Below, in pieces: positions 36,316-52,078 of a DNA stretch of 59,012 nucleotides. The translations under genes were made by a program, and so were the position numbers. The notes beneath the pieces were generated by a model. That model had not been told where the DNA came from and did no database searches. It saw nothing but the letters and a program-made list of their open reading frames with translations. The DNA lies in NCBI GenBank assembly GCA_964558825.1, contig CAZLGB010000001.1, positions 1 to 59,012 of the forward strand. Reading direction: 5' to 3'. How positions within the stretch are numbered: position 1 is the first letter of the stretch; the number at the start of each line of letters is the position of its first letter. The DNA comes from an uncultured Intrasporangiaceae bacterium. GTDB lineage: Bacteria > Actinomycetota > Actinomycetes > Actinomycetales > Dermatophilaceae.

Positions 36316-36428
36316 GGTGATCTCCGTTCGCGAATGAGAGCACTGCTCTCGCTTTCTGCCGCCAGTTGACCACGTTAACGTAGAGATTGTCAAGAGCGGC
36401 GCTCTCGTTTGTGTGAGATGCTCTGGAC

Positions 36429-37121: not shown

Positions 37122-37700
37122 CGCGTCTTCTTCTCGCCACTCGACGGCGGTCGCGTCCTTCGTCCACGTGGTCGCGAACTCGGCGACCAACCCATCGAGT
37201 GTGCGCCTATCGACCGACTGCCCCAAACGTGCCAGGGTTCACGACTCGCGCGGATGCACGCGACCTGCCGACACCTCTGGACGGAGAATGGGTGGCATGC
37301 GCGACACGCGAGAGACGGGGCTGGCCCTGGTGTCCCTCGCCGATGGGCTGAAAGGGCTCACCGGCCGTGAGCACCGTGTCGGAGGGCCGGGGGTGGTCGC
37401 CCCCGGCACGGTCATTCCGCACGCCAATGCCCTTCTGCTCCAACAGGACTGGCCTCGGACACCGAGACCGGCATACGTGCGGAGCTTCCTCTTGGCCATC
37501 CCCGAACGCTCCTGAGGCCGAGGGCGAGGGTCAGGCCCCTGGGTCTGTGACGTCGGCCCACCACCGTCATACCTGGGAGTGTGCACCACGTCCAGATGTC
37601 CCCGCCCAGCACACCGAATGCCATTGGTGATTCCGGCGCGCCAAGCTCCTGCGGCAACCAAGCTCCCCACGCGACCAACGCCATTCGGTATGCCGGTGCC

Positions 37701-38273: not shown

Positions 38274-38560
38274 TCCTCGGTTGTTTGGGTGAGGGTGACG
38301 GGCGGCAGCCCGTTGCGGAAGTCGTCGTCGACCGTTGGCAGCGCTCGCGGATAGGGCCGGCCGAAGACGAATCCGAAATAGGACGCTTCGTCGAACGCCA
38401 GATGCTTGACCAGACCGAGCACGTTGAGGCCCGTGGGAGTCATCGGCCGGCGGACGGCATACTCATCGAGGCCCTCGAGCGTGGGGACCACCGCGGCCCG
38501 CGCCCAGAGCAGACTCTGGTGCAATTGCTGCTTTGCCGCCTCGACCCGCTGGTCGCTCAT
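38267..38560 (-). pseudogene. N-terminal fragment of a DinB/DUF664-family protein (about half length)
   Basis: The 97-aa ORF has the DUF664-like start (..LEGLDEYAVRRPMTPTGLNVLGLVKHLAFDEASYFGFVFG) but stops after roughly half the usual length. It overlaps the next gene by 7 nt. Confidence 0.45.
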
Positions 38561-38652
38561 CTCCCGAGTCTGTCAGCGAGGCAGGCGTTAGGGGCCCAAT
38601 GCCCGTCGGCCCTCTTTACGCTGGACCAACAGATCCGACCGAAGGAGCTGCC

Positions 38653-39924
38653 GTGACGCTGCCGGAACTCCCCCACTGGGAGACGACGCCCGACGACCTC
38701 CCCGCGGCGATCCGCGACATCAAGTCGGCGCTGCGGCGTCGGCTGGAGGCGTCGGGTCGCACCGTGGAGGAGATCTTTGCCGTCGTCGAAGCACGAATTA
38801 GGCCGCAGATCGCGCAGATTGTCGCCGCGCAGGAGCGAGGCGACAACGTCTGGCCCACCATCGATTACACCGACATCGAGGCGGGGACCGTCCCGCCGGA
38901 AACGATCGACCTGTTGAGGCAGCGCGGCTGCCTGGTCATCCGCGACCACTTCCCGCGCGAGCAGGCCCTCGCGTGGGATGCCGGGATCGTCGACTACGTC
39001 GAGCGCAACCACTTCTTCGAGACCTATCGCGGCCCGGGCGACGACTTCTTCGGCAACCTCGGGTCCAAGCCCGAGATCTATCCGATCTACTGGTCGCCCG
39101 CCCAGATGCAGGCCCGCCAGAGCGATCGGATGGCCACGGCCCAGGCCTTCGTGAATCGGCTCTGGACCTATGGCACCGAGGGACAGCGGTGGTTCGACCC
39201 GGACCGCGATGCCCTCTATCCCGACCGGATCCGGCGCCGCCCCGCGGGGGTCGACTCCAATGGCCTTGGGCCACATCTGGATTCGGGCACCCTCAGCCTC
39301 TGGATGACCTCGGCCAACCAGCGCGCCTTCCGTCATCTCTTCGACGGGACAGTCGAGCGCTTCGACCCGTGGGACGCGGCCTACCGCACGAGCGGGCCGC
39401 AATATGCCAGCTCGACGATGTGCTCGGCATTCCGCACCTTCCAAGGCTGGACCGCGCTGTCAGACATGGAACACGACCAGGGTGTGCTGCACACCGTGCC
39501 GATCGCCGACGCGATGGCCTATCTGCTGCTGCGCCCACTGCTCGCCGACGTGCCCGAGGACGACATGTGCGGGGTCACGGTCGGGCAGGTCTTCCCCGCC
39601 CACCGGCAGTGGTTCGCCGAGTTGCTCACGGCCTCGGCCGGCATACCTGATGTCACAGCCGGCGACTCGGTGTGGTGGCACTGCGACATGATCCACAGCG
39701 TGGCCCCGGTGCGAGACCAGAAGGGCTGGGGCAACGTCATGTATATCCCCGCGGCGCCGTGGTGCCCACGCAACGAGGAGTATGCCGCGGTCGTCCGTGA
39801 CGCCTTCATGACCGGATCCAGCCCGAGCGACTTCCCCGACGAGCACTACGAGCGGACCTGGCGGGGCCGCTTTCAGGTCGAGCAGCTCAACGCCACCGGC
39901 CGCCGCGGACTTGGCCTGGGGTGA
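38653..39924 (+). CDS. DUF1479 (YbiU-like) family protein
   Basis: Long conserved pattern (GCLVIRDHFP..IYPIYWS..GPHLDSGT..WHCDMIHSV). GTG 38653 preceded by GAAGGAG. Confidence 0.8.
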   Translation: MTLPELPHWETTPDDLPAAIRDIKSALRRRLEASGRTVEEIFAVVEARIRPQIAQIVAAQERGDNVWPTIDYTDIEAGTVPPETIDLLRQRGCLVIRDHFPREQALAWDAGIVDYVERNHFFETYRGPGDDFFGNLGSKPEIYPIYWSPAQMQARQSDRMATAQAFVNRLWTYGTEGQRWFDPDRDALYPDRIRRRPAGVDSNGLGPHLDSGTLSLWMTSANQRAFRHLFDGTVERFDPWDAAYRTSGPQYASSTMCSAFRTFQGWTALSDMEHDQGVLHTVPIADAMAYLLLRPLLADVPEDDMCGVTVGQVFPAHRQWFAELLTASAGIPDVTAGDSVWWHCDMIHSVAPVRDQKGWGNVMYIPAAPWCPRNEEYAAVVRDAFMTGSSPSDFPDEHYERTWRGRFQVEQLNATGRRGLGLG

Positions 39925-40012
39925 TTCGGGCCTGTCTCCCCGACCTCCATGAGTCCGCTGGCCAGGGCCTGAGCCGCCGCCGTTGCGCACAGCAGTTGGC
40001 ATACTCGCCCTC

Positions 40013-40501
40013 ATGACCGATGCCGAGTTGACCGGACTGCGCGAGCGGATTCTGGCGCAGGAGCGGGACCTGCAGTTTTCCCGCTTCGCCGAGCCGGACG
40101 CCTGGGCGCTGGGCACGCTCCTGCACGATGCCGCCGTCGCAGATGGACACCCCGTGGCAATCTCCATCCGCCTCAACGGCTCGCTGCTGTTCTACAGCGC
40201 CCTGCCTGGGGCGACGCCGGACAACGCCGACTGGCTGCGGCGCAAGTGCGCGGTCGTTGATCGTTACCACCATGCGTCGCTGTATGTGGGCGTCGATTTC
40301 GCGCTCCGGGGCAAGACCTTCGAGATCGACTCGCGCCTGCCCGCAGCCGACTTTGCGGCGCACGGCGGCGCCTTTCCGATCATCCTGCGCGGAACGGGCG
40401 TCGTCGGCACCGTTGCCGTCTCTGGGCTGCCGCAGCGCGAGGACCACGACCTCGTCGTCGCTTCGCTCGGCAGCTACCTGCGCTCGGCTAGCCAGCGATG
40501 A
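40013..40501 (+). CDS. UPF0303 / heme-degrading-domain (GlcG-like) protein
   Basis: ERDLQFSRF..AWALG..ISIRLNG..LFYSALPGATPDNADWLRRK..GGAFPI..GTVAVSGLPQREDH is the UPF0303 pattern. Start at ATG 40013. Confidence 0.75.
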   Translation: MTDAELTGLRERILAQERDLQFSRFAEPDAWALGTLLHDAAVADGHPVAISIRLNGSLLFYSALPGATPDNADWLRRKCAVVDRYHHASLYVGVDFALRGKTFEIDSRLPAADFAAHGGAFPIILRGTGVVGTVAVSGLPQREDHDLVVASLGSYLRSASQR

Positions 40502-40659
40502 CACGACCGACAACGTCGTCGGCACCGCGGGCTGACAGCTGATCGCAGCTGACCGCGGACCGCTGCACGGTCGGAGCCCGCGAGGTCATCCGTCGCGGAC
40601 TCACCGACGTCAGGCTAGTCCGAGCACCGACCTAGACCTTCGATCCTAGGGGCTGGCAT

Positions 40660-40705
40660 GTTTCTCATATTCGTCATTTGACCCCCTCGGTCAAGAATGA
40701 GAAAC
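40660..40705. repeat. Nested inverted repeat in an unusually AT-rich stretch
   Basis: GTTTCTCAT..ATGAGAAAC (outer arms) enclose TTGACC-CCCTC-GGTCAA. Lies in host DNA downstream of the original ychF stop. Confidence 0.8.
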
Positions 40706-40836
40706 GATTGGACGCCACCGCGAGGGGGTCCCCGGCATCAACGCTCCGTCTCCACACTCCCCCGAAGCCGCTTGGCTACCCGCGCTGCGAAGTTCTCGGT
40801 CGGCGTCGAACCGTTGGTCGCCCGGCCGCAATGTCG

Positions 40837-40857
40837 CTAGACGTTGAAGCGGAACTC
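40837..40857 (-). other. Displaced original 3' end of ychF (codons EFRFNV plus TAG), separated from the gene by the insertion
   Basis: The reverse complement reads GAGTTCCGCTTCAACGTCTAG, which encodes the canonical YchF C-terminus ..VEFRFNV. The ychF body ends 10 kb away at 50984 with a non-canonical tail. Confidence 0.85.
40850..40857. repeat. attL core (CGGAACTC)
   Basis: Identical 8-mer at 51006-51013. Flanks on the two sides recombine in silico into an intact ychF terminus. Confidence 0.8.
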
Positions 40858-40890
40858 CACCGGATAACGTGAGTATGCAACACTACTGAC

Positions 40891-41151
40891 ATGAGCACAA
40901 GAGTGTGCGCGGACGAGCAGTGCGAGGCGACGTTCACCCCTACTCGGTCTGACGCCGAGTTCTGTTCCTCTGCCTGCCGCCAGCGGACCTATCGCCAGCG
41001 CGCCAAGGTGCGAGCGGGCATGCCGCACGCCGCCCGTTGGGCGCTCAGTGCTGGGCTCGGGCCGGCGACCGAAGCGCTCGCGCGGCACATGCTCGCCGAG
41101 ACCGTTACGGATAGCGCTCGGCTCATCCGTAACGCGGAGGGTGACCGATGA
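40891..41151 (+). CDS. Small Cys-rich (zinc-ribbon-like) protein, first gene of the element
   Basis: C-x4-C..C-x3-C (CADEQC..FCSSACRQRTYRQR). Its stop overlaps the integrase ATG (ATGA). Could be an accessory or directionality factor (inference). Confidence 0.6.
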   Translation: MSTRVCADEQCEATFTPTRSDAEFCSSACRQRTYRQRAKVRAGMPHAARWALSAGLGPATEALARHMLAETVTDSARLIRNAEGDR

Positions 41152-42557
41152 CCTCCCGCCGACGTGGTGCGGTTGCACCAGCTGAGGCCGCACCGACCAG
41201 GCGCGCGGCGATCTACCTGCGCATCTCGCTCGACGCCACGGGCGAAGGGCTCGCGGTCGAGCGCCAGCGCAAGGAGTGCCAGGCGATCGTCGAGGCGCGC
41301 GGCTGGCAGCTCGTGGGCGAGTTCGTCGACAACTCGATCAGCGCCAGCGACGCGAAGAAGAACCGACCTGGGTATGCCGCCCTGCTGGCCGCGTATGCCG
41401 CGGGCGAGTTCGACGCGCTGGTCTGCTACGACCTCGACCGGCTCACCCGCCAGCCACGCCAGCTCGAGGACTGGATCGACGCAGCGGAAGGCGGGCGGCT
41501 CGCGCTCACGACCGCCAACGGCGAGGCAGACCTCACGACCGACGGGGGTCGGCTCTTCGCCCGGATCAAACTCGCGGTCGCCCGGGCCGAGGTCGAGCGC
41601 AAGGGCGCCCGTCAGCGTGCGGCCGCCCGGCAGCGCGCCGACCTCGGGCGCCCGCCGCTGGGGGTCCGCCTGACTGGCTACACGCCGAAGGGCGACCTCG
41701 TGCCCGACGAGGCCGACCTCATCCGGCGCATCTTCCGGGAGTTCGTCGGCGGCGCCGGGCTGCGGACCATCGCCCGCGGGCTCAATGACGAGGGCGTGCC
41801 GACGCGACGGGGGAAGCCGTGGCACCCGTCGAGCCTGCTCACCATCCTGCGCAACCCTCGGTATGCCGGCCGGGCCATCTACCAGGGCGAGCAGACGGGC
41901 GGACAAGGCGCGTGGGTGGCCCTCGTCAGCGCTGAGGACTTCGAGACGGCACAGGCGATGCTCGACGACCCCACGCGGGCCACCAACCGCACCGGATCGA
42001 CCGAGCGCAAGCACCTCGGGTCGGGGCTCTTCCTGTGCGACGTGTGCCGCGAGCCGGTGAGCTCGTGGTCGGGCGGGCGCTACCGCTGCCGTAACGGCGC
42101 CCACGTCAACCGCGCCCGCGGGCCGGTGGACAGCTACGTCACGAGCGTCATCGCGGCGCGGCTGGCGCTTCCTGACATGGACGGACTCCTGTCGGTTTCC
42201 TCCACTGCGCACGCTCCCCTGCTCGACGACATCACCCGTCTACGCGCCCGGCTGGCCCGCAACGATGAGGACTATGACGCCGGGCTCATCGACGGCAAGC
42301 GCTACAAGGCCGCCCGCGATCGGGGTGAGGCTGAGCTACGGCAGGCGCAAGAGGCGCTGGCCCACGCGCGCTCAGGCGACGCCCTGGTGACCCTCGCGGG
42401 CGCCCCTGACCCAGCACAGGCGTTCCTCGACGCTCCGCTGGTGACTCAGCGCGCTGTCGTCGACTTCCTGGCCGTCGTCGCGCTGCGGAAGGGCACGCGC
42501 TACTCGCGGGAGTTCGATCCGGAGACGGTCGTCATCACGCCGAAGGAGCGAATTTGA
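41148..42557 (+). CDS. Large serine recombinase (integrase)
   Basis: N-terminal resolvase domain AAIYLRISLD (catalytic Ser) ..ERQ..DNSISAS..YDLDRLTR. Followed by a recombinase domain and zinc-ribbon (LFLCDVCREPV..YRCRNG), then a coiled-coil tail. 469 aa. Confidence 0.9.
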   Translation: MTSRRRGAVAPAEAAPTRRAAIYLRISLDATGEGLAVERQRKECQAIVEARGWQLVGEFVDNSISASDAKKNRPGYAALLAAYAAGEFDALVCYDLDRLTRQPRQLEDWIDAAEGGRLALTTANGEADLTTDGGRLFARIKLAVARAEVERKGARQRAAARQRADLGRPPLGVRLTGYTPKGDLVPDEADLIRRIFREFVGGAGLRTIARGLNDEGVPTRRGKPWHPSSLLTILRNPRYAGRAIYQGEQTGGQGAWVALVSAEDFETAQAMLDDPTRATNRTGSTERKHLGSGLFLCDVCREPVSSWSGGRYRCRNGAHVNRARGPVDSYVTSVIAARLALPDMDGLLSVSSTAHAPLLDDITRLRARLARNDEDYDAGLIDGKRYKAARDRGEAELRQAQEALAHARSGDALVTLAGAPDPAQAFLDAPLVTQRAVVDFLAVVALRKGTRYSREFDPETVVITPKERI

Positions 42558-42913
42558 GCCCTATCTCCCGAGCCGTGCGGTTCGTATGCACGGACAAGGG
42601 GCAGCACTCTGAACACGCGCTTGCCCTCGTCGTCCCGTATGCGGCGCGGGCGGATCGCACCGATATGACCCCTGATCCCGCTGCGTTATCTCGGGGGTGG
42701 GCCGTTGCTGAGAGCCTGACCCGCCGCGATGCCGGGGGTGATCCGCATACCTGGCACCGGGAATCAGCCGAGATCGTCAGTGGAACCTTGCACGTGCCGC
42801 GCTGTCCGTCGTGCAAGCGTGAACTTCGGATCACGAGTGCACAGATTCATGCGCTGGCGACTCAACTCACCCCCGACCGCGCCGGGCGTGTCCGCGTGGA
42901 CATCTCCTGCTAG
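42554..42913 (+). CDS. Hypothetical protein (element)
   Basis: 119-aa ORF. TTG start overlaps the integrase stop and is preceded by GAAGGAG. Contains CPSC. Confidence 0.55.
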   Translation: MSPISRAVRFVCTDKGQHSEHALALVVPYAARADRTDMTPDPAALSRGWAVAESLTRRDAGGDPHTWHRESAEIVSGTLHVPRCPSCKRELRITSAQIHALATQLTPDRAGRVRVDISC

Positions 42914-43020
42914 TCGCGTAGCATTGACATCACACGGGCCGAGTCCTGTTTCGACTCGGGCAAGCCGTCTCGCCGAAAGGCACGGGCGGCCCCCTACGCA
43001 TCCCCCAAGGGGAGCAGCCC

Positions 43021-43251
43021 GTGTCGCAGATCCTCGCAAGGCGCGCGCGTATCGCCGCGCTCACCCGTCATGGCCGCCCCGCCGACGATCCCGAGCTGGT
43101 CACAGAGCGCCAGGCGCTCAAGGCCGAACGTCTCGCCGAGCAAATCGAACGCGACGTCAGCACGTGGCCGCCGCTCACTGACGCCGACCGGGTCGAGCTG
43201 GCCCGCCTGCTGAGCCCGAGCCCTGCCCGTGAGCGGGGGTCCGCAGCGTGA
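43021..43251 (+). CDS. Hypothetical small helical protein (element)
   Basis: 76-aa ORF. GTG start preceded by AAGGGGAG. Normal composition. Confidence 0.55.
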   Translation: MSQILARRARIAALTRHGRPADDPELVTERQALKAERLAEQIERDVSTWPPLTDADRVELARLLSPSPARERGSAA

Positions 43252-43547
43252 GCGCTCCCCCGACACGAAGAAGCCGCCCCGGCATGGCTTCCGAGGCGGC
43301 TCCAAAGACGTTTCGCGGCGTCACCCAGATTGTACGTGAGACGCCCGTCTCGCGGACCCTCATGGTCGAGGTGTCGCGCTACTGCCTCACCTGCCGCCGC
43401 CGGCTGACCGAGCCCGGCGCCGCCGAGCAGCACGCCCGCCGCGGGCATCTCGTCGAGGTGGTCACCACGACGACTGCCGTCATGGGCACCGTCGCTGCCG
43501 TCGACCGGTTGATCCTCGCGCAGACCGGGGTGATGGCTCATGCCTGA
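43248..43547 (+). CDS. Hypothetical protein (element)
   Basis: 99-aa ORF with a GTGA overlap with the previous gene. CLTC..H..H zinc-finger-like motif. Confidence 0.5.
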   Translation: MSAPPTRRSRPGMASEAAPKTFRGVTQIVRETPVSRTLMVEVSRYCLTCRRRLTEPGAAEQHARRGHLVEVVTTTTAVMGTVAAVDRLILAQTGVMAHA

Positions 43548-43911
43548 CGACCTTGTCCCTGAGGCATACAAGCTCCACCCGATCGACTCGGGCGACCCGC
43601 AGCGGATGATCGACTACTTCGCCGGCCGTCACGACGAGCGCGAGTTCGGCGACGGTGCACGCGCCCAGGCCGAGCTCGACGAGCTCGCAGCCCTACAGCG
43701 CGCCGCCGTCCACAACGTGCACCGGGCGGCCGGTATGCCGGTCCGTGAGCCGCTCGTCCTCGAGCTGACGCCCGAGCAGATGGCGCGCGTTCACGCCGAC
43801 CGCGACCGCGTCCGGGGTGAGGCGTTCCGGGCCGGTCTTCGCGTCGGGAAGTCCGGAAGCTCGTATGTCGGGTCCCCCGACACACCGTCCGCGATGGGGG
43901 TGGCCTCGTGA
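43540..43911 (+). CDS. Hypothetical protein (element)
   Basis: 123-aa ORF. Overlaps its neighbours by 8 and 4 nt. Confidence 0.55.
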   Translation: MPDDLVPEAYKLHPIDSGDPQRMIDYFAGRHDEREFGDGARAQAELDELAALQRAAVHNVHRAAGMPVREPLVLELTPEQMARVHADRDRVRGEAFRAGLRVGKSGSSYVGSPDTPSAMGVAS

Positions 43912-45281
43912 GCCTCTACGGCACGGATTACCCGGACCCGGTCGAGCCCGACCCGACCATCCCCGTGGTCTCGCTCGCCGAGGCGCACGAGGTCTTCACG
44001 CGGTGGCTCGGGGACGACTACGACCTCGACGCCCTCGATGCCGTGTTGGCGACGGCCGCCGTCGAGCGGATGACCGGCGACCCGCTGTGGCTGCTGCTCA
44101 TCTCCGGCAGCGGCAACGCCAAGACCGAGACCGTGCAGGCTCTCGACGGCATAGGCGCGACCGTCACCTCGACGATCTCCTCCACGGGCGCGCTGCTGTC
44201 AGCGACCGCGAAGAAGGAGCGCGCCGAGGACGCCACCGGGGGGCTGCTACGCAAACTCGGCCCGCGCGGGGTCCTCGTGGTCAAGGACGTCACGAGCATC
44301 CTGTCGACCAGCCGCGATGCGCGCGCGGAGATCCTGGCAGCCCTCCGCGAGGTGTACGACGGCCGTTGGTCGCGCAACGTCGGCACCGACGGAGGCCGCA
44401 CGCTCGACTGGTCCGGGCGGCTCGCCCTCGTCGGGGCCGTCACGACCGCATGGGACCGGGCGCACGACGTCATCGCCTCGATGGGCGACCGGTTCGTGTT
44501 GCTGCGGATGGACTCCACCCAGGGCCGTCAGGTCGCCGGCCGGCAGGCCATCGGGAACACCGGCCACGAGATGACCATGCGCCGCCAGCTCGCCGACGCC
44601 GTCGCCGGAGTCCTCGCGGGCATGACGCCACGGGTGGACCCGGTCACCGACGCGGAGACCGACATCCTGCTCGCCGCCGCCGACCTCGTCACCCTGGCTC
44701 GCACCGGGGTCGAGTACGACTACCGCGGCGATGTCGTCGACGCCCACGCACCGGAAATGCCGACACGCTTCGCAAAGCAGCTCACCCAGGTGGTCCTTGG
44801 GGGGTGCGCGCTCGGTATGCCGCGCACGGCGGCGCTGCGTCTGGCGGTGCGGTGCGCCCGGGACTCGATGCCGCCGCTGCGGCTGGCCATCGTCGATGAC
44901 ATCGCGGCCCACCCCGACTCCTCGACTGCCGATGTGCGCAAGCGCCTCGGCAAGCCACGGGCCACCGTTGACCGGCAGTTGCAGGCGCTGCACATGCTCG
45001 GCGTACTGGTCTGCCAGGAAGAAGAGGTCGTCTGGGCCGGACGCGAGGCGACCCGCTGGCACTACTCCCTGGCCGACGGAATCGATCCGCACGCGCTCGA
45101 CCCGGACCAAATCAGTGCCAGATTTGGCGTTACGTACCCCTATCCACTGAAAGAAGAGGGGTCAGGCGTACACACCCCTACCGCCAAATCTGGCACTGAG
45201 TCCGACGGGTGCTGCCTCGACTGCGGTCTACCCCTGCCGGCCGGCTCGACATCGGCCTACCACCAGGGGTGCGCCGCATGA
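43908..45281 (+). CDS. P-loop NTPase, putative replication initiator/helicase-like protein with C-terminal wHTH
   Basis: Walker A-like LLLISGSGNAKTE and Walker B-like GVLVVKDV. C-terminal winged-helix-like segment (VRKRLGKPRATVDRQLQALHMLGVL). Largest gene of the early module. Confidence 0.55.
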   Translation: MSLYGTDYPDPVEPDPTIPVVSLAEAHEVFTRWLGDDYDLDALDAVLATAAVERMTGDPLWLLLISGSGNAKTETVQALDGIGATVTSTISSTGALLSATAKKERAEDATGGLLRKLGPRGVLVVKDVTSILSTSRDARAEILAALREVYDGRWSRNVGTDGGRTLDWSGRLALVGAVTTAWDRAHDVIASMGDRFVLLRMDSTQGRQVAGRQAIGNTGHEMTMRRQLADAVAGVLAGMTPRVDPVTDAETDILLAAADLVTLARTGVEYDYRGDVVDAHAPEMPTRFAKQLTQVVLGGCALGMPRTAALRLAVRCARDSMPPLRLAIVDDIAAHPDSSTADVRKRLGKPRATVDRQLQALHMLGVLVCQEEEVVWAGREATRWHYSLADGIDPHALDPDQISARFGVTYPYPLKEEGSGVHTPTAKSGTESDGCCLDCGLPLPAGSTSAYHQGCAA

Positions 45282-45676
45282 CCACTCCGCCCGTCCTCGT
45301 CTTGGGCTCGTCGGTGCTGCTGTCGGGTCAGGCGGTTGCCGATGCGCTCGGGCTGGCGGTGTTGGGCAGCCGCGTGGCAGCGCGTGACGGCATCGGCACA
45401 CCGCCTCGGGTGCGCGTCTTGGTCGGGGCCTTGAAAGACGCCCTAAAGGCACAGGGGCGTCCGGGCGGACATGCGGACGTCCGCGACGAGGCCGAGTCGG
45501 CAGAGTCGGATAGCCGGGTCACAACCTCCGACGCGGCAAGGGTGTTGGGACTGTCCACTCGTCAGGTCCGTCGCCTGGCGTTCCCCCTCGCCGGGGTGCG
45601 CGGGCCTGGCGGGTGGACGTACTCAGCCGAAGCGCTCGCGGCATACGCCGCACGACGACAGGAGCAAGCATCGTGA
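45278..45676 (+). CDS. HTH DNA-binding protein (MerR/excisionase-like HTH)
   Basis: TTSDAARVLGLSTRQVRRLA helix-turn-helix. ATGA overlap with the previous gene. Confidence 0.55.
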   Translation: MTTPPVLVLGSSVLLSGQAVADALGLAVLGSRVAARDGIGTPPRVRVLVGALKDALKAQGRPGGHADVRDEAESAESDSRVTTSDAARVLGLSTRQVRRLAFPLAGVRGPGGWTYSAEALAAYAARRQEQAS

Positions 45677-46122
45677 GCACCATCACCCGGGGCTCGTGGA
45701 TCAACGGCGACCATTTCCCCATCACGGTCGACGTCCGCGGCGCCAACCCGCTCGAGGACGATGTCCGCCAGACCAGCCCCGCCGCCTACGCGGCCAGCGT
45801 CAAGGTCGCCGGCCCATGTCCCAAACTGTTCGCCGGCGGGCTGCTCGACCTGCCGGTGTTCACCGCCTCTGGCATCGACCCGGCCGTCCTCAAGACGGTG
45901 CCCGCGACGCAGCGACACGCGCTGGCCGCCGAGCCCGACCGTGCCAAGGTCTACGCACTCATCGAGGAGTACGGCCCCTTCGACGACGTCTCCCTTCCCC
46001 ACCCCGGATGGAATGACGCGGTCGGGCGGGTCGGGCACTGGGCCTCGGGCCGACTCGACCCGCCTGGCTCCGAGGCGTCGGTCGTGGCCGCAATGGATGA
46101 GTGGGCCAGGACCAACCGATGA
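45673..46122 (+). CDS. Hypothetical protein (element)
   Basis: 149 aa. GTGA overlap upstream and ATGA overlap downstream. Confidence 0.55.
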   Translation: MSTITRGSWINGDHFPITVDVRGANPLEDDVRQTSPAAYAASVKVAGPCPKLFAGGLLDLPVFTASGIDPAVLKTVPATQRHALAAEPDRAKVYALIEEYGPFDDVSLPHPGWNDAVGRVGHWASGRLDPPGSEASVVAAMDEWARTNR

Positions 46123-46913
46123 ACCTGACCCAGTTCTCAGCGCGAGCGGTCGCGTCCTTCCTGCGCGAGCTGTCCACCGACGGGGCGCCCGTTCCGGTGG
46201 CCGCCATGAACGCGGTTGCCCTGCTCGACGACATCCTCTCGGGCGACCCGGCGCAGACCCTGCGCCCCAGCACCAATCCGACCGCGCTCATGGCCTCCGA
46301 CCCCGCCACATTCGCCGATGCCATCCGGGCCGAGGCGCTGTGGATGGTCGTCGGTTCGCGCGCCGGGGACGCCGCTGTCGTGGTGACTGACGCAACCATG
46401 AAGGCGGCCGTCGACCTCACCCGCGAGCGTGCCGACGACCTGCTCGACCACTACCGCCCCCGCTTCGACAGGGCCATCGCGACCATCGCCGCGGCGGTCG
46501 AGGCGGGCGTCCGATATGACATGACCTCCGACGACCTTGTCATCGCCGGCCCGTCAGTCGTCGCTGCGTGGCAACCCGTCCCCGGCGCAGCCGCCGTCCT
46601 CGACCGGATCGCATCCAAGCGCAGCCGCATGTGCGAGCTGCTAGATATCGCCCCTGTCGCTCAATACCAACACTCGGCGATGCCCGGCGCAGCGCGAACA
46701 ATGTGGCCCATCGACACGGCATACGCCGTGGTCCGGCTACCCGAGAAGACCCACCGATCCGGTCCCGCCTACTGGCTGCGCCTGGCATCCCTCGGGCCGG
46801 TCACGCTGCACACCGTCGCGCAAACCATCGCTGCCGAGCGAGCCACCCGACCGCCCATCCGCGTAGCCGTCGTCGAGAACGACCACGGCCGCGCCGTGAT
46901 GAACGTCCATTGA
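46119..46913 (+). CDS. Hypothetical protein (element)
   Basis: 264 aa with normal composition. Translationally coupled on both sides. Confidence 0.55.
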   Translation: MNLTQFSARAVASFLRELSTDGAPVPVAAMNAVALLDDILSGDPAQTLRPSTNPTALMASDPATFADAIRAEALWMVVGSRAGDAAVVVTDATMKAAVDLTRERADDLLDHYRPRFDRAIATIAAAVEAGVRYDMTSDDLVIAGPSVVAAWQPVPGAAAVLDRIASKRSRMCELLDIAPVAQYQHSAMPGAARTMWPIDTAYAVVRLPEKTHRSGPAYWLRLASLGPVTLHTVAQTIAAERATRPPIRVAVVENDHGRAVMNVH

Positions 46914-47272
46914 TGCCGTTCGCGTCAAAGGCCATCCGTCAGCGGGCACGCCGTCGCGTGGCCGCTCGGGTCCGCGCCGGGGAGCCGTGCGCGTTCTGCG
47001 GCCTACCCATCGACCTGACCATCCCGTATCCAGATCCCGCTTCATTCACGGTTGACCACGCCATCCCTTCCAGCCTCGGAGGCACCGACAACTACGAGCA
47101 GCTACGCGCGGCGCACAACGCCTGCAACCGAGCGAGGAGCAATCTGCCATCGGGCACCGTGGGCACCAACTCCGGCGCACTGACGGGTGGGGGACTGCCC
47201 CCCTCGCCTCCATCGCGGCCCTCTCACGGCATAGGGATCAATCTGGAGCCCAGAAAGGCCCGCGCCTCGTGA
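46913..47272 (+). CDS. HNH endonuclease
   Basis: CAFCG..TVDHAIPSSLGG..N..LRAAHNACNRAR (Cys pair plus H-N-H core). Placed immediately upstream of the terminase genes, as in cos-type phages. Confidence 0.8.
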   Translation: MPFASKAIRQRARRRVAARVRAGEPCAFCGLPIDLTIPYPDPASFTVDHAIPSSLGGTDNYEQLRAAHNACNRARSNLPSGTVGTNSGALTGGGLPPSPPSRPSHGIGINLEPRKARAS

Positions 47273-47472
47273 CCACCGACCGCGAGCGCCTGGAGGCCCT
47301 CCGCGAGCGCCTGGAGGGGGTCATCAGTGACCCCGCGACCAGCCCGCGAGACCTGGCGACGGTAGCCCGTGAGTACCGAATCCTCGTGCACAAGCTGTCC
47401 GAGTTGCGACCAGCCGAGCGGTCTGCGTTGGACGAGATTGCCGCACGCCGAGCGCAACGGAGGTCATCGTGA
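47269..47472 (+). CDS. Small helical protein in the TerS position (putative small terminase subunit)
   Basis: 67 aa with GTGA overlaps on both sides. The call rests on position between HNH and TerL only. Confidence 0.45.
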   Translation: MTTDRERLEALRERLEGVISDPATSPRDLATVAREYRILVHKLSELRPAERSALDEIAARRAQRRSS

Positions 47473-48875
47473 CGGTCGCGGTTTCGTGCCCACCCACGTT
47501 CTGCCGGGTGCCCGATGGGGATGAGACCACAGGACGGGAGACTGTCGAGCTGGCCCGCGCCTACGGGGTGCCTTTAGACGAGTGGCAGGAGTCCATCGTC
47601 CGGGGGGTCCTGCGTGAGTCCGGCAACGGATGGGCCGCCTCTCAAGCCGGGCTGGTCGTGTCTCGGCAGAACGGCAAGGGCCAAATCCTGCTCGTGCTGG
47701 AGCTGGCCGGGCTGCTCCTGTTCGACGAGCACATCCTGCACACCGCGCACGCCGTCAAGACCAGTTCCGACGCGTTCCGCCGTTTGTGGCGCCTGATCCA
47801 GTCACATGACGACCTGTCGCGCCGTGTGCGCCGGCACTCCGAGCAGATCGGCATGGAGTATGTCGAGTGGACCTCAGGCGCCCGCATCGCGTTCACCACC
47901 CGCTCAGCGTCCGCCGGCCGAGGGTTGGCCGTCGATCGGCTAGTCGTCGACGAGGCCGAAGACTTCCCCGCGCCGGAGGTCGGAGCACTCGCACCCACCG
48001 TGTTCAGTCGACCGCGCGCCCAAAGTCTGTACTTCGGCACAGCTCCTGGCCCGATGCACGACTCGGAAGCGTTCGCCACGATGCGCCGCACGGCACACGA
48101 AGGGCTCAATCCGCGCCTGGCCTGGTGGGAGTGGGTAGCCGAGTACGGGCACGACGTTGACGACCGGCAGGTGTGGCTTCAGGTCAACCCTGCGGTCGCC
48201 GTTGGCCGCGTTGACGTACAGGCCATCGTCAATGACCGGGCCGTGCTTCCCGTCGACCAGTTCCGCGCCGAACGGTTGTCCATGTGGCTACCCACGGGTG
48301 GCGCCCGAGTGTTCGACGCGGACCCCTGGCAAAGCCTCACCGACATGGGGTCGACCCCTGTCACGGATCTCGCGCTCGGGTTGGATTGCCCACCGTCCCG
48401 CGAGTACGCCACGGTCTGCCTGGCAGGCCGCCGCGCGGACGGGCTGCTCCACGTCGAGTGGTACCACAGCGCCGAAGGGGTGCGCTGGGTCCCCGAATGG
48501 GTCGCCGCGCATCTCACACCCGCCGTCAGGGCCGTGGTCGTCGACACCCGAAACCCGCTCGCTGAGCTCGACTGGAAAGCCGCAGGCGTCGCACCCACCC
48601 TCGCCGGAACCCGTGACGTCGCGGCGGCTGCTGGCGCGTATTTCGACGCCATCAGCGAAGGCCGCGCACGCCACCGCGGACAAGTCGAACTCACCCGCGC
48701 CACTCTCGGCGCCCGACAGCGACCCATGGTCGCCGGAGAAGGGTTCGGCTGGGATCGCAAGGCGCCGGGCTCGTCTGCGCTCTACGCCGCATCCCTCGCC
48801 GTCTGGGGCGTCGACACACCCACCGCCGAAAAGCCACCATGCAGGATCCGCACGGGCCGAGCCGTCTTCCGTTAG
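47469..48875 (+). CDS. Phage terminase large subunit
   Basis: LDEWQESIVRGVL, Walker A SRQNGKG and Walker B LVVDEAE, followed by a nuclease-type C-terminal half. 468 aa. Confidence 0.85.
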   Translation: MTVAVSCPPTFCRVPDGDETTGRETVELARAYGVPLDEWQESIVRGVLRESGNGWAASQAGLVVSRQNGKGQILLVLELAGLLLFDEHILHTAHAVKTSSDAFRRLWRLIQSHDDLSRRVRRHSEQIGMEYVEWTSGARIAFTTRSASAGRGLAVDRLVVDEAEDFPAPEVGALAPTVFSRPRAQSLYFGTAPGPMHDSEAFATMRRTAHEGLNPRLAWWEWVAEYGHDVDDRQVWLQVNPAVAVGRVDVQAIVNDRAVLPVDQFRAERLSMWLPTGGARVFDADPWQSLTDMGSTPVTDLALGLDCPPSREYATVCLAGRRADGLLHVEWYHSAEGVRWVPEWVAAHLTPAVRAVVVDTRNPLAELDWKAAGVAPTLAGTRDVAAAAGAYFDAISEGRARHRGQVELTRATLGARQRPMVAGEGFGWDRKAPGSSALYAASLAVWGVDTPTAEKPPCRIRTGRAVFR

Positions 48876-48893
48876 CGGCAGTAAACTTCACGA

Positions 48894-49163
48894 GTGGCTC
48901 TGAAACCCAGAAACGTCGAGTGGATCGGGTTCACGAAAGAGCAAGCCCGCATGCTCGACTTCCTCGATCACCTAGGCAACAACGGCTGGGACCGCAACGG
49001 ACAGACCGACGCCGTGATGCCCGGGTACATCCTTGAACTCGAAAGCCAGATCGGCCTATCGCGAGTCAAAGACGCCATGGCGTCAGTCGGATACGACCGA
49101 AGCGACCTGCACATGCTCGACCGGTGGTATTCGAAAGCCACAACAGGCAAGTTCGGCCGATGA
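48894..49163 (+). CDS. Hypothetical protein, atypical codon usage (cargo)
   Basis: 89 aa. Visibly more A/T-ending codons (AAA, AGA, GAA, CTA, TAT) than neighbouring genes. GTG start. Confidence 0.55.
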   Translation: MALKPRNVEWIGFTKEQARMLDFLDHLGNNGWDRNGQTDAVMPGYILELESQIGLSRVKDAMASVGYDRSDLHMLDRWYSKATTGKFGR

Positions 49164-49170
49164 GGGGCCG

Positions 49171-49824
49171 GTGGCGCCATTTGAGGCGACGGGCGCGCGG
49201 TGGGAACCTTGCGGGGTGACCGAAGCCCTCGCCGTCATCGCCATCTTGGTTTCATTGGGGTCGCTCTACTTCGCATGGAAGGTTGCTAGATCCACCGAGG
49301 ATCAAGCCGACATACAGCGTCAGATCCGGATCGATGCTGCGCAGCCGTTCGTTTTCGCTGACATCCGTCCGCACCACCAGCATGGCAGCCTCCTCATGTT
49401 CGTAGTCGGGAACACTGGTCCGACAGTGGCGACCAACGTCCGCATCTCCCTTCACCGCCCACTCCCCGCAGGCGACACGGACCGAGCGCTGAGAGCCACA
49501 CGCGCCATCGAGAACGGAATCTCGGCGCTAACGCCGGGCCAGACGGTCGCATGGACGCTCGGCGTGCCCTGGCAGGTTCTCGAACAGGTTCCCGAAGGGG
49601 ACGCTTCGTATCGCTTTGCCGTCACCTGCGATGGCCCCTTCGGCCCCGTGCCGCCCCTGGAGTACACCGTCGACCTAGACGACATTCGGCACTCACACCC
49701 GTATGCCGTGGGCACCCTTCACGGCGTTGCAGAACAGATCAGATCACTCAGAGAGGACCTCGCGCGGCAGCTCAGAGAGCTCCGCCCACCACTTGCCCAC
49801 ATGGATGATGAGGAGGACGAGTGA
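49171..49824 (+). CDS. Membrane-anchored hypothetical protein with acidic C-terminus (cargo)
   Basis: TM helix ALAVIAILVSLGSLYFAW, then a probable beta-rich domain (LLMFVVGNTGPTVATNVRISL), and it ends DDEEDE. The start is ambiguous (GTG 49171 or 49216). Confidence 0.6.
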   Translation: MAPFEATGARWEPCGVTEALAVIAILVSLGSLYFAWKVARSTEDQADIQRQIRIDAAQPFVFADIRPHHQHGSLLMFVVGNTGPTVATNVRISLHRPLPAGDTDRALRATRAIENGISALTPGQTVAWTLGVPWQVLEQVPEGDASYRFAVTCDGPFGPVPPLEYTVDLDDIRHSHPYAVGTLHGVAEQIRSLREDLARQLRELRPPLAHMDDEEDE

Positions 49825-49865
49825 CGTACAACAGCCACGGACTCCGGGACCGCGCTCGTGGGTCA

Positions 49866-50054
49866 TTAGCTCTCAAGGTCGACCCTCTGCCCGCAACTCG
49901 AGCACACGAGCTTGCGCAGCGCGCCCTTTGCGAGCCCCGCCGCGACTAGCGTCGTCTTCCCACATGTGGGGCAGTTCAGGAACTGCTCGGGTCTGTTGCT
50001 CATATCCTCCAGGTCGCCAACTAGATCATCGAGACCATCGAACTCCATGCTCAT
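49866..50054 (-). CDS. Small zinc-ribbon protein (cargo)
   Basis: 62 aa. Acidic N-terminus, then CPTC..x21..CSSC. Start at the internal ATG 50054. The upstream part of the track ORF is implausible. Confidence 0.55.
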   Translation of the reverse strand: MSMEFDGLDDLVGDLEDMSNRPEQFLNCPTCGKTTLVAAGLAKGALRKLVCSSCGQRVDLES

Positions 50055-50076
50055 GCCCCTGACCGTACCCAACGAC

Positions 50077-50107
50077 ACCGCCCCCCGCTCATCGAGCGGG
50101 GGGCGGT
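50077..50107 (-). terminator. Strong hairpin: 14-bp perfect GC-rich stem, 3-nt loop
   Basis: ACCGCCCCCCGCTC-ATC-GAGCGGGGGGCGGT, about 85 nt downstream of the 72-aa gene on the minus strand. Confidence 0.65.
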
Positions 50108-50193
50108 CTCTTGACGTCGAGCTACTTGACCCGCTCGAACACCGGGGCCAAGTACGCACGGGGTCAGGCACGGTAGGAAGTCCAGACGAGCGC

Positions 50194-50412
50194 TCACTGC
50201 TCCATCTTCGCCACGAGTTCCGAGGTCTTGATGCCGAGCCTGTCCGCGATGAAGAACAAGGTCTCGACCCTCGGAGTGGGGTCGTCGGGCGCCGGAATGT
50301 CCGGCTGGAGCCGATGGGCGAGCCGAGTGAGGGCGCGGGCGATGTCGTCCACGGCATATGCCAGCCATCCGCGCGGGTCCGTCAGGACCACGGGAAGACG
50401 GTCGGCGTTCAT
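50194..50412 (-). CDS. Hypothetical small protein (element regulatory module)
   Basis: 72 aa. ATGA overlap with the XRE gene. C-terminus (ETLFFIADRLGIKTSELVAKME) resembles the last helices of an XRE domain. Confidence 0.55.
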   Translation of the reverse strand: MNADRLPVVLTDPRGWLAYAVDDIARALTRLAHRLQPDIPAPDDPTPRVETLFFIADRLGIKTSELVAKMEQ

Positions 50413-50618
50413 CGGGCCACCACCTTCCCCATCGTGCGGTCAGCTGCCATCCGGCCCAGCGCATCGAGAGCCTGGTCACGCCGCGCCGGGCGAGCCTCAA
50501 CCTGACCCCGTTCGTAACGGCCCAACCAGGACCGGCTCAGCCCCGACTCCCGAGCGAGCTGCTCCAGCGTGAAGCCCAACGCCGTGCGCAGCAACCGCAA
50601 GGCCGCACCGTAGCTCAT
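50409..50618 (-). CDS. XRE-family HTH transcriptional regulator (Cro/CI-like)
   Basis: LRLLRTALGFTLEQLARESGLSRSWLGRYERGQ. Confidence 0.75.
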   Translation of the reverse strand: MSYGAALRLLRTALGFTLEQLARESGLSRSWLGRYERGQVEARPARRDQALDALGRMAADRTMGKVVAR

Positions 50619-50951
50619 CGCGCACCCGCCAGCACCACGGCGAGATCCTCGGCCGCGCCGCGCAAGGCGTCACCCATCGCGGTCAACCGTGCCACCGCCT
50701 CACCGAGCGGCAGTACCGCCACCCGCGCGCCGCCCACGGACACCCCGACACCCGAGGTGCCATCCGCGTGAGCGAACACGTCCACCAGCACATCCGGGGA
50801 CACGGTCGCCCCCCGCACCTGCCCCTTGCGGCTCCGAGGCTGCCAAGTCGACGTCCTCCCGCGTCGGCATCGCCAGCGTGTCCAGCAGCCGGTGCGCCGG
50901 GTTCGTGCACCAGCTCGGGCAGTCGGTGGGGCTGAGAGTGGAAAGGGTCAT
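50615..50951 (-). pseudogene. Phage-type small protein apparently split by a frameshift at a C6/G6 run
   Basis: The N-terminal frame (ATG 50951: MTLSTLSPTDCPSWCTNPAH..) and C-terminal frame (50818-50615: ..VLVDVFAHADG..LPLGEAVARLTAMGDAL) change at the homopolymer at 50809-50814. Alternatively 50615-50818 is an independent GTG-started gene. Confidence 0.4.
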
Positions 50952-50983
50952 GTCCGGCCTCCATTGGGCCGGTCGAGCCACCC

Positions 50984-52078
50984 TTACCTAGTTGTTGCAG
51001 AGTGTCGGAACTCGACCACGTCGCCGTCGGCCATCACATAGTCCTTGCCCTCGATGCGCACCTTGCCCGCAGCGCGCGCGGCCACCATCGTCCCGGCGGC
51101 ATCCAGATCGGCGAAGGACACGACCTCGGCCTTGATGAAGCCCCGCTGGAAGTCGGTGTGGATGACACCCGCAGCTTGCGGGGCCGTCCAGCCCTGGCGG
51201 ATCGTCCAGGCTCGCGACTCCTTGGGCCCCGCCGTCAAATAGGTCTGCAGCCCGAGGGTGTGGAAGCCGACATGAGCGAGCTGGTCGAGCCCCGGCTCGG
51301 TCACGCCCACCGACTCAAGCAGCTCGCGCGCCTCCGCCTCGTCGAGCTCGGCCAGATCGGCCTCAAGCTTGGCCGACAGGAAGACGCTGTCGGCAGGCGC
51401 CACCGACGCGCGCAGTCGCGCCTGCAACTCGGTGTCGGTCAGCTGGTCTTCGTCGAGATTGAAGACATAGATGAAGGGCTTGGTCGTCAGCAGCTGCAGC
51501 GCGCGCGCCTCGGCGAGGTCGACCCCGTAGGCCGCGCCGGCGGCATACAGCGTCTTGCCATCCTCCAAACACCGTTGCGCCGCAACGGCATTGTCGTATG
51601 CCGCCCGCTTGTCCTTGACGACGCGCGCCTCCTTCTCCAGGCGCGGGACGGCCTTTTCGAGGGTCTGGAGGTCGGCGAGGCAGAGCTCGGTCTCGATGGT
51701 CTCGATGTCCCCGGCCGGGCTGACCTTGCCCTCGACGTGGGTGACGTCGTCGTCGACGAAGACCCGCACGACCTGGCAGATGGCGTCGGCCTCGCGGATG
51801 TTGGCGAGGAACTTGTTGCCCAGACCCTCGCCCTCGGAGGCGCCGCGGACGATGCCGGCGATGTCGACGAAGGACACGGTCGCGGGCAGAATCCGCTCCG
51901 AGCCATAGATCTCGGCCAGTCTCGCCAGCCGTGGATCGGGCAGCGGCACGACGCCGACATTGGGCTCGATCGTCGCGAAGGGATAGTTCGCGGCCAGGAC
52001 GTTGTTCTTGGTCAGCGCATTGAAGAGCGTCGACTTGCCGACGTTGGGAAGGCCGACGATTCCGATGGTGAGCGCCAC
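50984..52078 (-). CDS. ychF: Redox-regulated ATPase YchF, with C-terminus altered by the insertion
   Basis: [18 protein letters not shown] and the full YchF pattern. It ends ..[14 protein letters not shown] instead of ..VEFRFNV. Confidence 0.93.
51006..51013. repeat. attR core (CGGAACTC)
   Basis: See attL. Lies within ychF codons V-E-F-R. Confidence 0.8.

Follow-up and report, generated by a model that had tools for sequence, protein, structure and literature searches.

An island at the 3' end of ychF

We analyzed a 59,012-nt stretch of DNA (the window; GenBank assembly GCA_964558825.1, contig CAZLGB010000001.1, positions 1 to 59,012) from an uncultured Intrasporangiaceae bacterium, in which the gene for the ribosome-binding ATPase YchF is separated from its own last codons by a block of about 10 kb. 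This block, the island, carries a large serine recombinase (integrase) gene near the displaced ychF end, runs through a series of plus-strand genes that includes those for an HNH endonuclease and the small and large terminase proteins (TerS and TerL), and reaches the ychF body with a minus-strand block that holds an XRE-type regulator (Table 1). The best protein matches of the window YchF (91-92% in a protein search) belong to metagenome-assembled genomes (MAGs) labeled 'Dermatophilaceae bacterium' and 'Candidatus Phosphoribacter sp.', and the host appears to be an uncultured, Candidatus Phosphoribacter-like member of the Dermatophilaceae. Rfam and tRNA scans of the whole window gave no match.

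Table 1. Positions of ychF, the attachment-site parts and the open reading frames (ORFs) of the island within the window (GC3, G+C content at third codon positions; HTH, helix-turn-helix).
Feature	Position	Strand	Basis
Displaced ychF 3' end (EFRFNV-stop); forms attL with the core	40837..40857	-	read directly
attL copy of the identity block (CGGAACTC = GAGTTCCG in ychF sense)	40850..40857	.	read directly
attP-derived arm beside attL (..CACCGGATAACGTGAGTATGCAACACTAC..), contains TGCAACA	40858..40890	.	kept in islands L114, L118
86-aa CxxC..CxxxC zinc-ribbon-like ORF, end overlaps integrase start (ATGA)	40891..41151	+	weak PHROG match, primase-family zinc finger, 3.4e-6
Large serine recombinase (integrase), 469 aa, Ser27 predicted nucleophile	41148..42557	+	Pfam, PHROG, PDB 9iu2 alignment
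Doubtful 119-aa ORF	42554..42913	+	GC3 0.71 (low), absent from public gene calls, no family match
Three small early ORFs: 76, 99 or 87, 123 aa	43021..43911	+	no family assignment
457-aa replication-type protein, P-loop-like GSGNAKT, C-terminal winged helix	43908..45281	+	weak winged HTH matches
Two ORFs, 132 and 149 aa	45278..46122	+	gene calls; GC3 0.76-0.88
264/270-aa protein directly upstream of HNH	46119..46913	+	1 homologue among 5.8 billion proteins
HNH endonuclease, cos-terminase-companion kind	46913..47272	+	Pfam HNH 1.3e-7; phrog_338 1.2e-21
TerS-like protein, 67 aa	47269..47472	+	phrog_1459 TerS 1.4e-5
Full-length TerL, 468 aa, Walker A RQNGKG, Walker B LVVDEA	47469..48875	+	phrog_9 2.7e-47
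Accessory region: small ORF and 217-aa ORF	48894..49824	+	G+C 0.59-0.64; phrog_11802 (unknown function) 6e-5
Block co-directional with ychF: 67-aa ORF, XRE regulator, 72-aa ORF, hairpin, 70-aa ORF	49866..50818	-	public gene calls
attP-derived arm giving the new YchF end	50984..51005	-	last base of Arg codon, then H-S-A-T-T-R-stop
attR copy of the 8-bp identity block	51006..51013	.	read directly; intact-ychF alignments end here
ychF (ribosome-binding ATPase)	50984..52078	-	YchF-GTPase_C 3.4e-36, MMR_HSR1 6e-22
attB, reconstructed, ychF sense (..GACGGCGACGTGGTC-GAGTTCCG-CTTCAACGTCTAGCGAC..)			
attP, reconstructed, ychF sense (..AGTGTTGCATACTCACGTTATCCGGTG-GAGTTCCG-ACACTCTGCAACAACTAGGTAAGGGTGG..)			

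Junctions and attachment sites

Read on the reverse strand, the orphan ychF end is GAG TTC CGC TTC AAC GTC TAG and encodes EFRFNV-stop. This 21-nt end is present as a single copy in the window even when three mismatches are allowed, where the chance expectation is 0. Both junctions carry the 8-bp identity block CGGAACTC, an 8-mer found seven times in the window against 2.6 expected, which by itself is weak evidence of insertion. The island measures 10,148 bp from core to core and 10,156 bp as a circle. Its integrase gene starts 291 bp after the attL core, a distance given as about 290 bp in an earlier note on this DNA, made from the letters alone. That note had proposed an insertion with recognizable attL and attR, a reconstructible attB and an exchange of the last YchF residues; its description of YchF as 'essential-type' should be put more cautiously. 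Direct reading of the window returns exactly its coordinates for ychF, the orphan tail and the 8-mer, and the insertion is borne out by the junction reads, by exact copies of the rejoined site elsewhere and by intact ychF genes in two relatives, as detailed below. At the protein level, YchF is unchanged up to Arg359, after which Phe-Asn-Val (three codons) is lost and His-Ser-Ala-Thr-Thr-Arg (six codons) is gained; the protein thus has 364 aa in place of the usual 361, with residues 1-358 and most of codon 359 derived from the host and the tail from the island.

In the ychF sense, attB is ..GACGGCGACGTGGTC-GAGTTCCG-CTTCAACGTCTAG (codons 351-361) and attP is ..GTGTTGCATACTCACGTTATCCGGTG-GAGTTCCG-ACACTCTGCAACAACTAGGTAAGG..; written around CGGAACTC, attB becomes ..GACGTTGAAG-CGGAACTC-GACCACGTC.. 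and attP becomes ..GCAGAGTGT-CGGAACTC-CACCGGATAAC.. With identity limited to 8 bp, the att sites are short, as those of large serine recombinases are. Both attP arms are conserved in two related ychF islands, one in Intrasporangium calvum DSM 43043 (L114) and one in a MAG (L118). The arm that encodes the new tail is kept there, and also in L115 and L120 (see below), as CGACACTCTGCAAC(A/T)ACTA(A/G)GTA. The reconstructed attP further contains a 7-bp inverted repeat, TGCAACA/TGTTGCA (40876-40882 and 50993-50999), likewise conserved in L114 and L118.

The three islands with conserved arms narrow down the crossover. Directly 5' of GAGTT, the base at the ychF-body junction is host-type (C) in the window, L114 and L118, and at the tail junction it is element-type (G, G and A, respectively); therefore, the exchange took place 3' of that base. 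The identity block ends at GAGTTC in another ychF island of the same integrase type (L083) and at GAGTT in a further one (L101). Provided that a single homologous position serves the whole family, the dinucleotide at the center of the exchange would fall within GAGTT, most likely at TT, the candidate nearest the center of a weak GACGT/ACGTC symmetry in attB. The earlier note had taken these GACGT..ACGTC arms as a feature expected of a serine-integrase attB. The arms do exist and are centered on the second T of GAGTT in the core, but at a length of only 5 bp, and with their sequence set by the Asp-Val and Asn-Val codons, they add little. A crossover at the center of the TGCAACA/TGTTGCA repeat (GT in CCGGTG) is ruled out by the host-type base at the body junction of all three islands.

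Relatives without the island

Deleting 40858-51013 from the window leaves a rejoined site. A collection with one genome per species contains exact copies of its 33-mer, CTAGACGTTGAAGCGGAACTCGACCACGTCGCC, in at least 82 stretches from other species, mostly Actinomycetota. Its carriers include Streptomyces, Mycobacterium, Nocardia, Micromonospora, Agromyces and Acidimicrobiales, and none of the 82 is a close relative of the host, the best reaching 76% nucleotide identity in ychF. Among the 120 YchF clusters nearest to the window protein, 98 have 361 aa and end in FNV, and 19 (about 16%) have a replaced tail, with every replacement beginning after VVEFR.

The earlier note had suggested looking at ychF in relatives that lack the element. 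The two closest relatives (L110 and L113, 84-85% nucleotide identity) have an intact 361-aa YchF ending in GAGTTCAGGTTCAACGTGTAG or GAATTCCGCTTCAACGTGTGA, and their nucleotide alignments to the window break off within the core, at 51008 and 51006. Upstream, the RmuC and thioesterase genes are syntenic between the window and these relatives, as are the downstream genes for an MFS transporter and a 445-aa protein, which correspond to 31.1-34.7 kb of the window. The intact ychF, the stop of the alignment within the core and the synteny on both sides together show that the window corresponds to such a relative plus an insertion.

The integrase and its relatives at ychF

The integrase contains a Resolvase domain (PF00239, residues 20-167, 1.7e-26) followed by a Recombinase domain (PF07508, residues 186-273, 5.4e-21) and matches the integrase family phrog_95 at 1e-90. 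Residues 19-316 align with PDB 9iu2 (500 aa; phmmer E value of 2.6e-17), whose sequence we take to be that of the Bxb1 integrase. In this alignment YLRIS27 pairs with IRLS10, placing Ser27 on the catalytic Ser10, and the zinc-ribbon cysteine motif CDVC..RYRC pairs with CAVC..RYRC.

A search of isolate genomes and MAGs recovered 24 relatives of the integrase. Six of the 24 show an orphan ..VVEFRFNV-stop. For eight, ychF lies no more than 10 kb away, and each of these eight has the break in YchF at one and the same point, right after ..DGDVVEFR. The ychF-adjacent islands give YchF foreign tails such as HGATSSGKK, TGLTSGGKK and HGITSASQGKK. Two further islands, found through YchF (L114 in I. calvum and L118), have an integrase 71% identical to that of the window and a tail of HSATTK. 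Overall, at least 12 genomes have an integrase relative (41-71% identity) at this position of ychF; the gene is broken right after VVEFR in nine islands (L083, L089, L090, L091, L093, L096, L101, L103 and L114), and orphan VVEFRFNV tails are found in L083, L086, L090, L100, L101, L103, L114 and L118. Genera sharing the site are Nocardioides, Nocardia, Dietzia, Cellulosimicrobium, Kocuria, Brachybacterium, Bowdeniella, Ornithinimicrobium and Intrasporangium. The serine integrase, named earlier as the responsible enzyme, is thus well supported by the position of its relatives in many genera. Given integrase identities of 41-71% across so many genera together with the replaced YchF tails, targeting of this exact ychF site by the integrase clade is old and widespread.

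The closest integrases in a phage collection are those of Microbacterium phages, at 44% identity. No convincing ychF-like attP was found within 2.5 kb of the integrase gene of Microbacterium phage UtzChips (44%) or of prophiGD54-2 (39%), and both probably use targets other than ychF.

The sister ychF islands measure 8.3, 8.8, 9.2 and 11.2 kb and differ in cargo. The 8.3-kb island of I. calvum (CP002343, at about 2.99-3.00 Mb) encodes a 528-aa Phage_capsid protein, a D5-type primase and WhiB besides its integrase (11525-13111 and 15350-16741 of L114). Several ychF islands with related integrases, in which the integrase is near the ychF body, carry defense-type cargo directly after the rebuilt ychF end, namely type III restriction-modification (Mod and Res), an SNF2 helicase, OLD-family AAA_15/TOPRIM proteins, an SMC-like ATPase and a PLD nuclease (L089, 7040-8233; L090, 3770-8439 and 12793-14862; L091, 1197-9037; L093, 5063-9951; L101, 7183-9792).

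Replaced YchF tails and decayed islands

The earlier note had held that related genomes with a ychF naturally ending in ..FRHSATTR and the same downstream genes would speak against an insertion. Formally, two genomes with a YchF end of the ..FRHSATT[KR] type and no element beside it exist: Terrabacter sp. Soil811 (L115) and a MAG (L120) have an HSATTK or HSATHK tail followed by attP-arm DNA and no integrase. However, both retain an orphan canonical tail, 0.6 kb downstream in L115 (11051-11680) and 2.8 kb downstream in L120 (11051-13934), and they are islands decayed in place rather than examples of a natural ychF ending. The in-place decay in turn shows that the altered YchF is tolerated over evolutionary time. 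The new tail ends in ..GKK in many islands and the length differences are multiples of three, which hints at some selection on the tail peptide. The second junction of L115 contains a repeat of 23 bp of ychF, pointing to an attP that is different or composite.

Terminase family and nature of the island

The island TerL has 304 homologues at E<1e-30, many of them 65-77% identical and spread across Actinomycetota (hosts include Dermacoccus, Nakamurella, Janibacter, Kytococcus, Mycolicibacterium gilvum, M. monacense, M. arabiense and M. intracellulare). The best match in a sequenced phage, Rhodococcus phage Sleepyhead, is only 34% identical over 97% of the length. In three genomes with long contigs, a TerL 66-76% identical to that of the window closes islands of about 10 kb: Dermacoccus sp. 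SAI-028 (L121, 3757-13233), M. gilvum (L122, 1123-12383) and Kytococcus sedentarius (L123, 1668-12762). All three share one gene order, a tyrosine integrase, small ORFs, a D5 or Prim-Pol primase, an ORF of about 170-290 aa, HNH-TerS-TerL, and one or two small ORFs at the end; WhiB was detected in two of the three, and no capsid or portal match was found in any. Their HNH-TerS-TerL proteins are 52-76% identical to those of the window (52-65% for HNH genes, which lie directly upstream of TerS-TerL, and 52-64% for the equivalents of the TerS-like ORF). The window island is a mosaic, with a packaging module from this terminase-island family and an integrase/early module as in the Intrasporangium ychF islands, and the two modules can be exchanged independently; the tyrosine integrases of the terminase islands act at sites other than ychF.

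Profile searches with Pfam, PHROGs, NCBIfam and PADLOC detected no portal, protease, capsid, tail, lysin, polymerase, conjugation or known defense family in the island ORFs; this absence of structural and lysis genes rests on profile searches, with about 1.3 kb of ORFs left without assignment. What was found is a site-specific island of 10 kb with its own integrase and packaging genes and no detected virion or lysis gene, as in phage-inducible chromosomal islands (PICIs). It has an XRE regulator of its own, and its putative replication module consists of a 457-aa protein with a likeness (30%) only to the helicase part of a Prim-Pol protein and of a candidate inverted repeat, no primase domain or origin being proven. 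We consider it probable, with good confidence, that the window holds a mobile island inserted at the 3' end of ychF by a Bxb1-type serine integrase and that this island is a PICI-like phage satellite.

Several observations weigh against that interpretation. The order int - early - replication - HNH - TerS - TerL is also that of the left part of an ordinary temperate siphovirus prophage, and the 264-aa protein and several smaller island proteins have no assignable function. No helper phage, cos site, origin or directionality factor was identified for the island. No TerL relative turned up in IMG/VR by pattern search, and the predicted circular (attP) junction, GCAGAGTGTCGGAACTCCACCGGATAAC, had no match in IMG/VR or in JGI metagenome contigs. 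An empty site of the same species, sought in JGI metagenomes as a 36-mer of species-specific flank plus attB, was likewise without match, so that the empty-site argument rests on relatives at 85% nucleotide identity in ychF. Three other public contigs with the fused YchF are all in the integrated state and 99.9-100% identical to the window; at this identity they represent the same population. Finally, attP has no convincing symmetry about the proposed crossover, and the center of the TGTTGCA/TGCAACA repeat lies about 6 bp to one side of it.

The most serious alternative is a cryptic prophage remnant, in which a full temperate phage entered ychF by the same integrase and later lost everything from portal to lysis by deletion, leaving a fragment that is immobile or can at most excise and that lacks its own life cycle. 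The gene order just mentioned fits the left part of many siphovirus prophages, G+C drops after TerL, neither a circular junction nor a same-species empty site was recovered, and L115 and L120 show that ychF islands do decay in situ. In contrast, a common end point recurs in the islands of three other genera, which stop one or two small ORFs beyond a TerL of 66-76% identity, are similar in size and have no portal or capsid; other ychF islands of this integrase type are also 8.3-9.2 kb; and no sequenced phage has a TerL nearer than 34%. Moreover, the ORFs of 43540-48875 are all intact, have high GC3 and each overlap the next by 1-4 nt. Because independent prophage deletions would not be expected to stop at the same place in four genera, and because no sequenced phage has a close TerL, we favor the satellite and regard a remnant as rather improbable. 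An intact temperate prophage finds no counterpart in an island of only 10 kb with no head, tail or lysis module detected.

Far less probable still is a defense island, pipolin or integrative conjugative element that happens to hold a few phage-derived genes. The ychF gene has been published as a site of serine-recombinase pipolins, which are defense islands (PMC11551731), and five ychF islands (L089, L090, L091, L093 and L101) bear the restriction-modification, SNF2, OLD-family and PLD nuclease genes listed above. The window island has as its largest ORFs the integrase, the helicase-like protein and TerL, and no family-B DNA polymerase, PADLOC model, FtsK/Tra-type translocase or relaxase matched any of its ORFs. 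The pipolin hallmark piPolB is accordingly missing from the matches, no ORF matching any polymerase family, and neither the FtsK/SpoIIIE-type transfer protein nor the Rep protein of actinomycete integrative and conjugative elements was detected.

That there was no insertion at all, with ychF natively ending in ..FRHSATTR and the EFRFNV-stop fragment and 8-bp repeat arising by coincidence, we practically dismiss: the 8-mer is not rare and a few relatives have HSATT[KR]-type ends with no adjacent integrase, but the 21-nt tail is unique, the joined site is exact in the intact ychF ends of 82 other-species stretches and 98 of 120 YchF clusters end in FNV, the interval holds a serine integrase whose relatives occupy the same site, the integrase-less cases retain attP DNA and an orphan tail, and the comparative data already refute it.

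Other genes and features of the island

Between attL and the integrase lies the zinc-ribbon-like ORF, for which the public gene call is shorter (43 aa). It was considered as a part of the recombination system and set aside, as the sister islands do not conserve it; the ORF that precedes the integrase in L118 is no homologue of it. A promoter scan marked a promoter-like site at 42897-42924, within and just beyond the doubtful 119-aa ORF. Among the small early proteins, that of 76 aa is 60% and that of 99 aa 38% identical to ORFs of the I. calvum ychF island, and the former is 38% identical to an ORF of L118; the two proteins travel with the integrase type, and each might act as a regulator or as a recombination directionality factor.

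The 457-aa protein is 30% identical over 332 aa to the C-terminal helicase part, outside the Prim-Pol domain, of the 749-aa Prim-Pol protein of K. sedentarius (L123), and a sequence search found no relative of it in the PDB. Its gene contains near the 3' end, at 45112-45132 and 45179-45199, a relatively AT-rich inverted repeat of 21 nt with 95% complementarity and a 46-nt spacer, a candidate origin. The 132-aa protein has a C-terminal HTH of the excisionase/MerR type, with weak matches to phrog_66 (excisionase, regulator; 0.0022) and phrog_57 (0.00035), and is a candidate directionality factor or TerS-like DNA-binding protein.

For the 264-aa protein, the AlphaFold model has a predicted local distance difference test score of 39 and is unusable; in this poor model the chain is mostly helical. 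A weak PHROG match to a major head protein (0.0048) lacks credibility by itself. Near its start, the TerS-like gene has two perfect 17-nt direct repeats (CCGCGAGCGCCTGGAGG), at 47280-47296 and 47301-47317 and 21 nt apart, which could be a coding repeat (RERLEALRERLEG) or a terminase recognition element.

The 217-aa ORF of the accessory region was suspected by eye to contain a transmembrane segment; this region had no PADLOC match, and NCBIfam and PADLOC added nothing useful for the unassigned ORFs. Within the minus-strand block, the XRE-type HTH regulator occupies 50409-50618 (HTH_31, 1.3e-11), and a GC-rich hairpin with 17-nt arms, 94% complementary, and a 3-nt loop lies at 50074-50110. A scan of the DNA from the ychF stop to this block showed nothing resembling a terminator.

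Outside the island, downstream of the orphan tail, about 6 kb (34790-40836) reaching to the conserved MFS-transporter gene is not common to the closest relatives, whose counterpart consists of toxin-antitoxin (PIN, PemK) and DUF4259 genes; the region downstream of ychF is variable even with the island set aside. Just outside attL, an intergenic AT-rich patch (40655-40735), unusual in a genome of 70% G+C, contains the nested inverted repeats TTTCTCAT..ATGAGAAA and GACCCCCTCG..CGAGGGGGTC, the latter with about 30 nt between its arms. The patch, which has no match in Rfam, might serve as the terminator native to ychF or have a regulatory role.

Proposed mechanism

In the first step, the integrase recombined the attP of the island with the chromosomal attB at ychF codons 351-361. 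Strand exchange at a dinucleotide inside GAGTT, most likely TT, placed the attP arm behind the ychF body, where it encodes the new tail, and left the old end stranded at attL beside the integrase operon. Sequence comparison shows this recombination, the replacement of the tail and the stranding of the old end. Since the XRE block adjoins ychF directly downstream in the same orientation, it may be transcribed by read-through from ychF.

For the later steps (induction, excision, replication and packaging), we infer the following course. Induction, probably by a helper phage, would switch on the long plus-strand operon for the integrase, the small early proteins, the replication protein, HNH, TerS and TerL. 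Some directionality factor would let the integrase excise the island, which would then replicate, and its own HNH-terminase holoenzyme would cut the island DNA and package it into procapsids. These procapsids would have to be supplied by the helper, because the island has no detectable portal, capsid, tail or lysis genes.

Comparison with known systems

The earlier note knew of no report of ychF as a target, a point that has to be corrected: an analysis of gene context has already named the gene as a place where large-serine-recombinase pipolins of Actinomycetota integrate (Mateo-Caceres et al., Nucleic Acids Res 2024, PMC11551731). Going by its descriptions, those pipolins share phylum, target gene and recombinase class with the window island; where the paper names ychF, it states neither att sequences nor a crossover position, nor what happens to the end of YchF. 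The window island differs from pipolins in that neither a primer-independent PolB nor defense genes were detected in it.

In Actinobacteria, PICI-like islands of about 10 kb are represented by phiRv1, phiRv2 and candidate PICIs of Mycobacterium, which have tyrosine or serine integrases (Bibb and Hatfull 2002, via PMC10085698 and PMC10654092). As far as these sources describe them, the serine-integrase examples from Mycobacterium do not use tRNA sites (PMC10085698, PMC10654092), and islands of the phiRv1/phiRv2 type resemble that of the window in combining an integrase (serine in phiRv1), a primase or helicase and few head or packaging genes. The I. calvum ychF island, with its 71% identical integrase, has exactly the content of phiRv1-type islands, with capsid, D5 primase and WhiB. 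As for the target, phiRv1 integrates in REP13E12 repeats, not ychF. The Mycobacterium candidate PICIs are defined by an integrase plus a major capsid gene, whereas the window island has no detected capsid gene and a complete HNH-TerS-TerL set.

Another group is formed by EPIPs, 11-kb satellites of Mycolicibacterium aichiense that have a serine integrase, an HTH regulator and a small terminase and depend on a helper prophage (bioRxiv 2025, PMC12822802). By description, they differ from the window island by lacking a large terminase and by encoding head-tail adaptors, a scaffold, a tape-measure protein and a major capsid (PMC12822802). An association of HNH proteins with terminases has also been noted (PMC10085698).

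With Bxb1-type integrases, the window enzyme shares alignable catalytic, recombinase and zinc-ribbon parts, short att sites and a protein-coding target, at remote similarity. Bxb1 inserts inside groEL1 and disrupts it; in contrast, ychF in the window keeps the function-bearing body. Capsid-forming PICIs (cfPICIs) carry HNH, TerS and TerL themselves and package their cos-type DNA. Beyond these, their genes cover the portal, protease, capsid and head-tail connectors, with tails as the only borrowed part. No portal, protease, capsid or connector gene was detected in the window island, and such genes would not fit into its unassigned coding space. In the open-access literature, we found no description of att sequences at ychF or of capsid-less islands that bear a terminase. 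The kind of element and the ychF target are already known in outline, and the window island is a well-resolved further example.

Implications

The island adds a fully resolved case of a serine integrase acting on the last codons of a housekeeping gene, with attL, attR, attB and attP defined and the crossover placed within 5 bp. Dozens of actinobacterial genera have an identical site. Since the 33-bp attB is unchanged in Streptomyces, Mycobacterium, Nocardia, Micromonospora and others, an integrase of this clade could serve as a broad-host integration tool that spares its target. In Streptomyces and Mycolicibacterium smegmatis, the end of ychF equals the 33-mer or departs from it at silent positions only. 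The 71% identical integrase of the cultured I. calvum DSM 43043 is one such candidate integrase and offers a convenient experimental system.

The ychF end is a shared landing site for several kinds of element. A broader proposal, tentative and in our judgment somewhat more apt to fail than to hold, is that HNH-TerS-TerL marks an undescribed, phylum-wide family of capsid-less satellites of about 10 kb, which would use a complete terminase holoenzyme to divert the procapsids of a helper phage, with free swapping of integrases and a satellite-specific TerL (65-77% conserved across orders, yet only 34% identical to that of any sequenced phage), and that ychF is a general landing pad used by one old integrase clade whose attP arm always rebuilds a short YchF tail; the landing-pad part refers to an end occupied in about one-sixth of genome lineages among the relatives of the host.

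The host family includes Candidatus Phosphoribacter, a phosphate accumulator of wastewater, where the interplay of phage, satellite and host is little known. The end of ychF is a busy insertion hotspot for satellites, defense islands and, according to the literature, pipolins, with scarred YchF tails that persist after the islands decay. The significance of the finding would grow if terminase-only islands prove to be a distinct class of satellites or if the integrase becomes a broad-host, nondisruptive tool.

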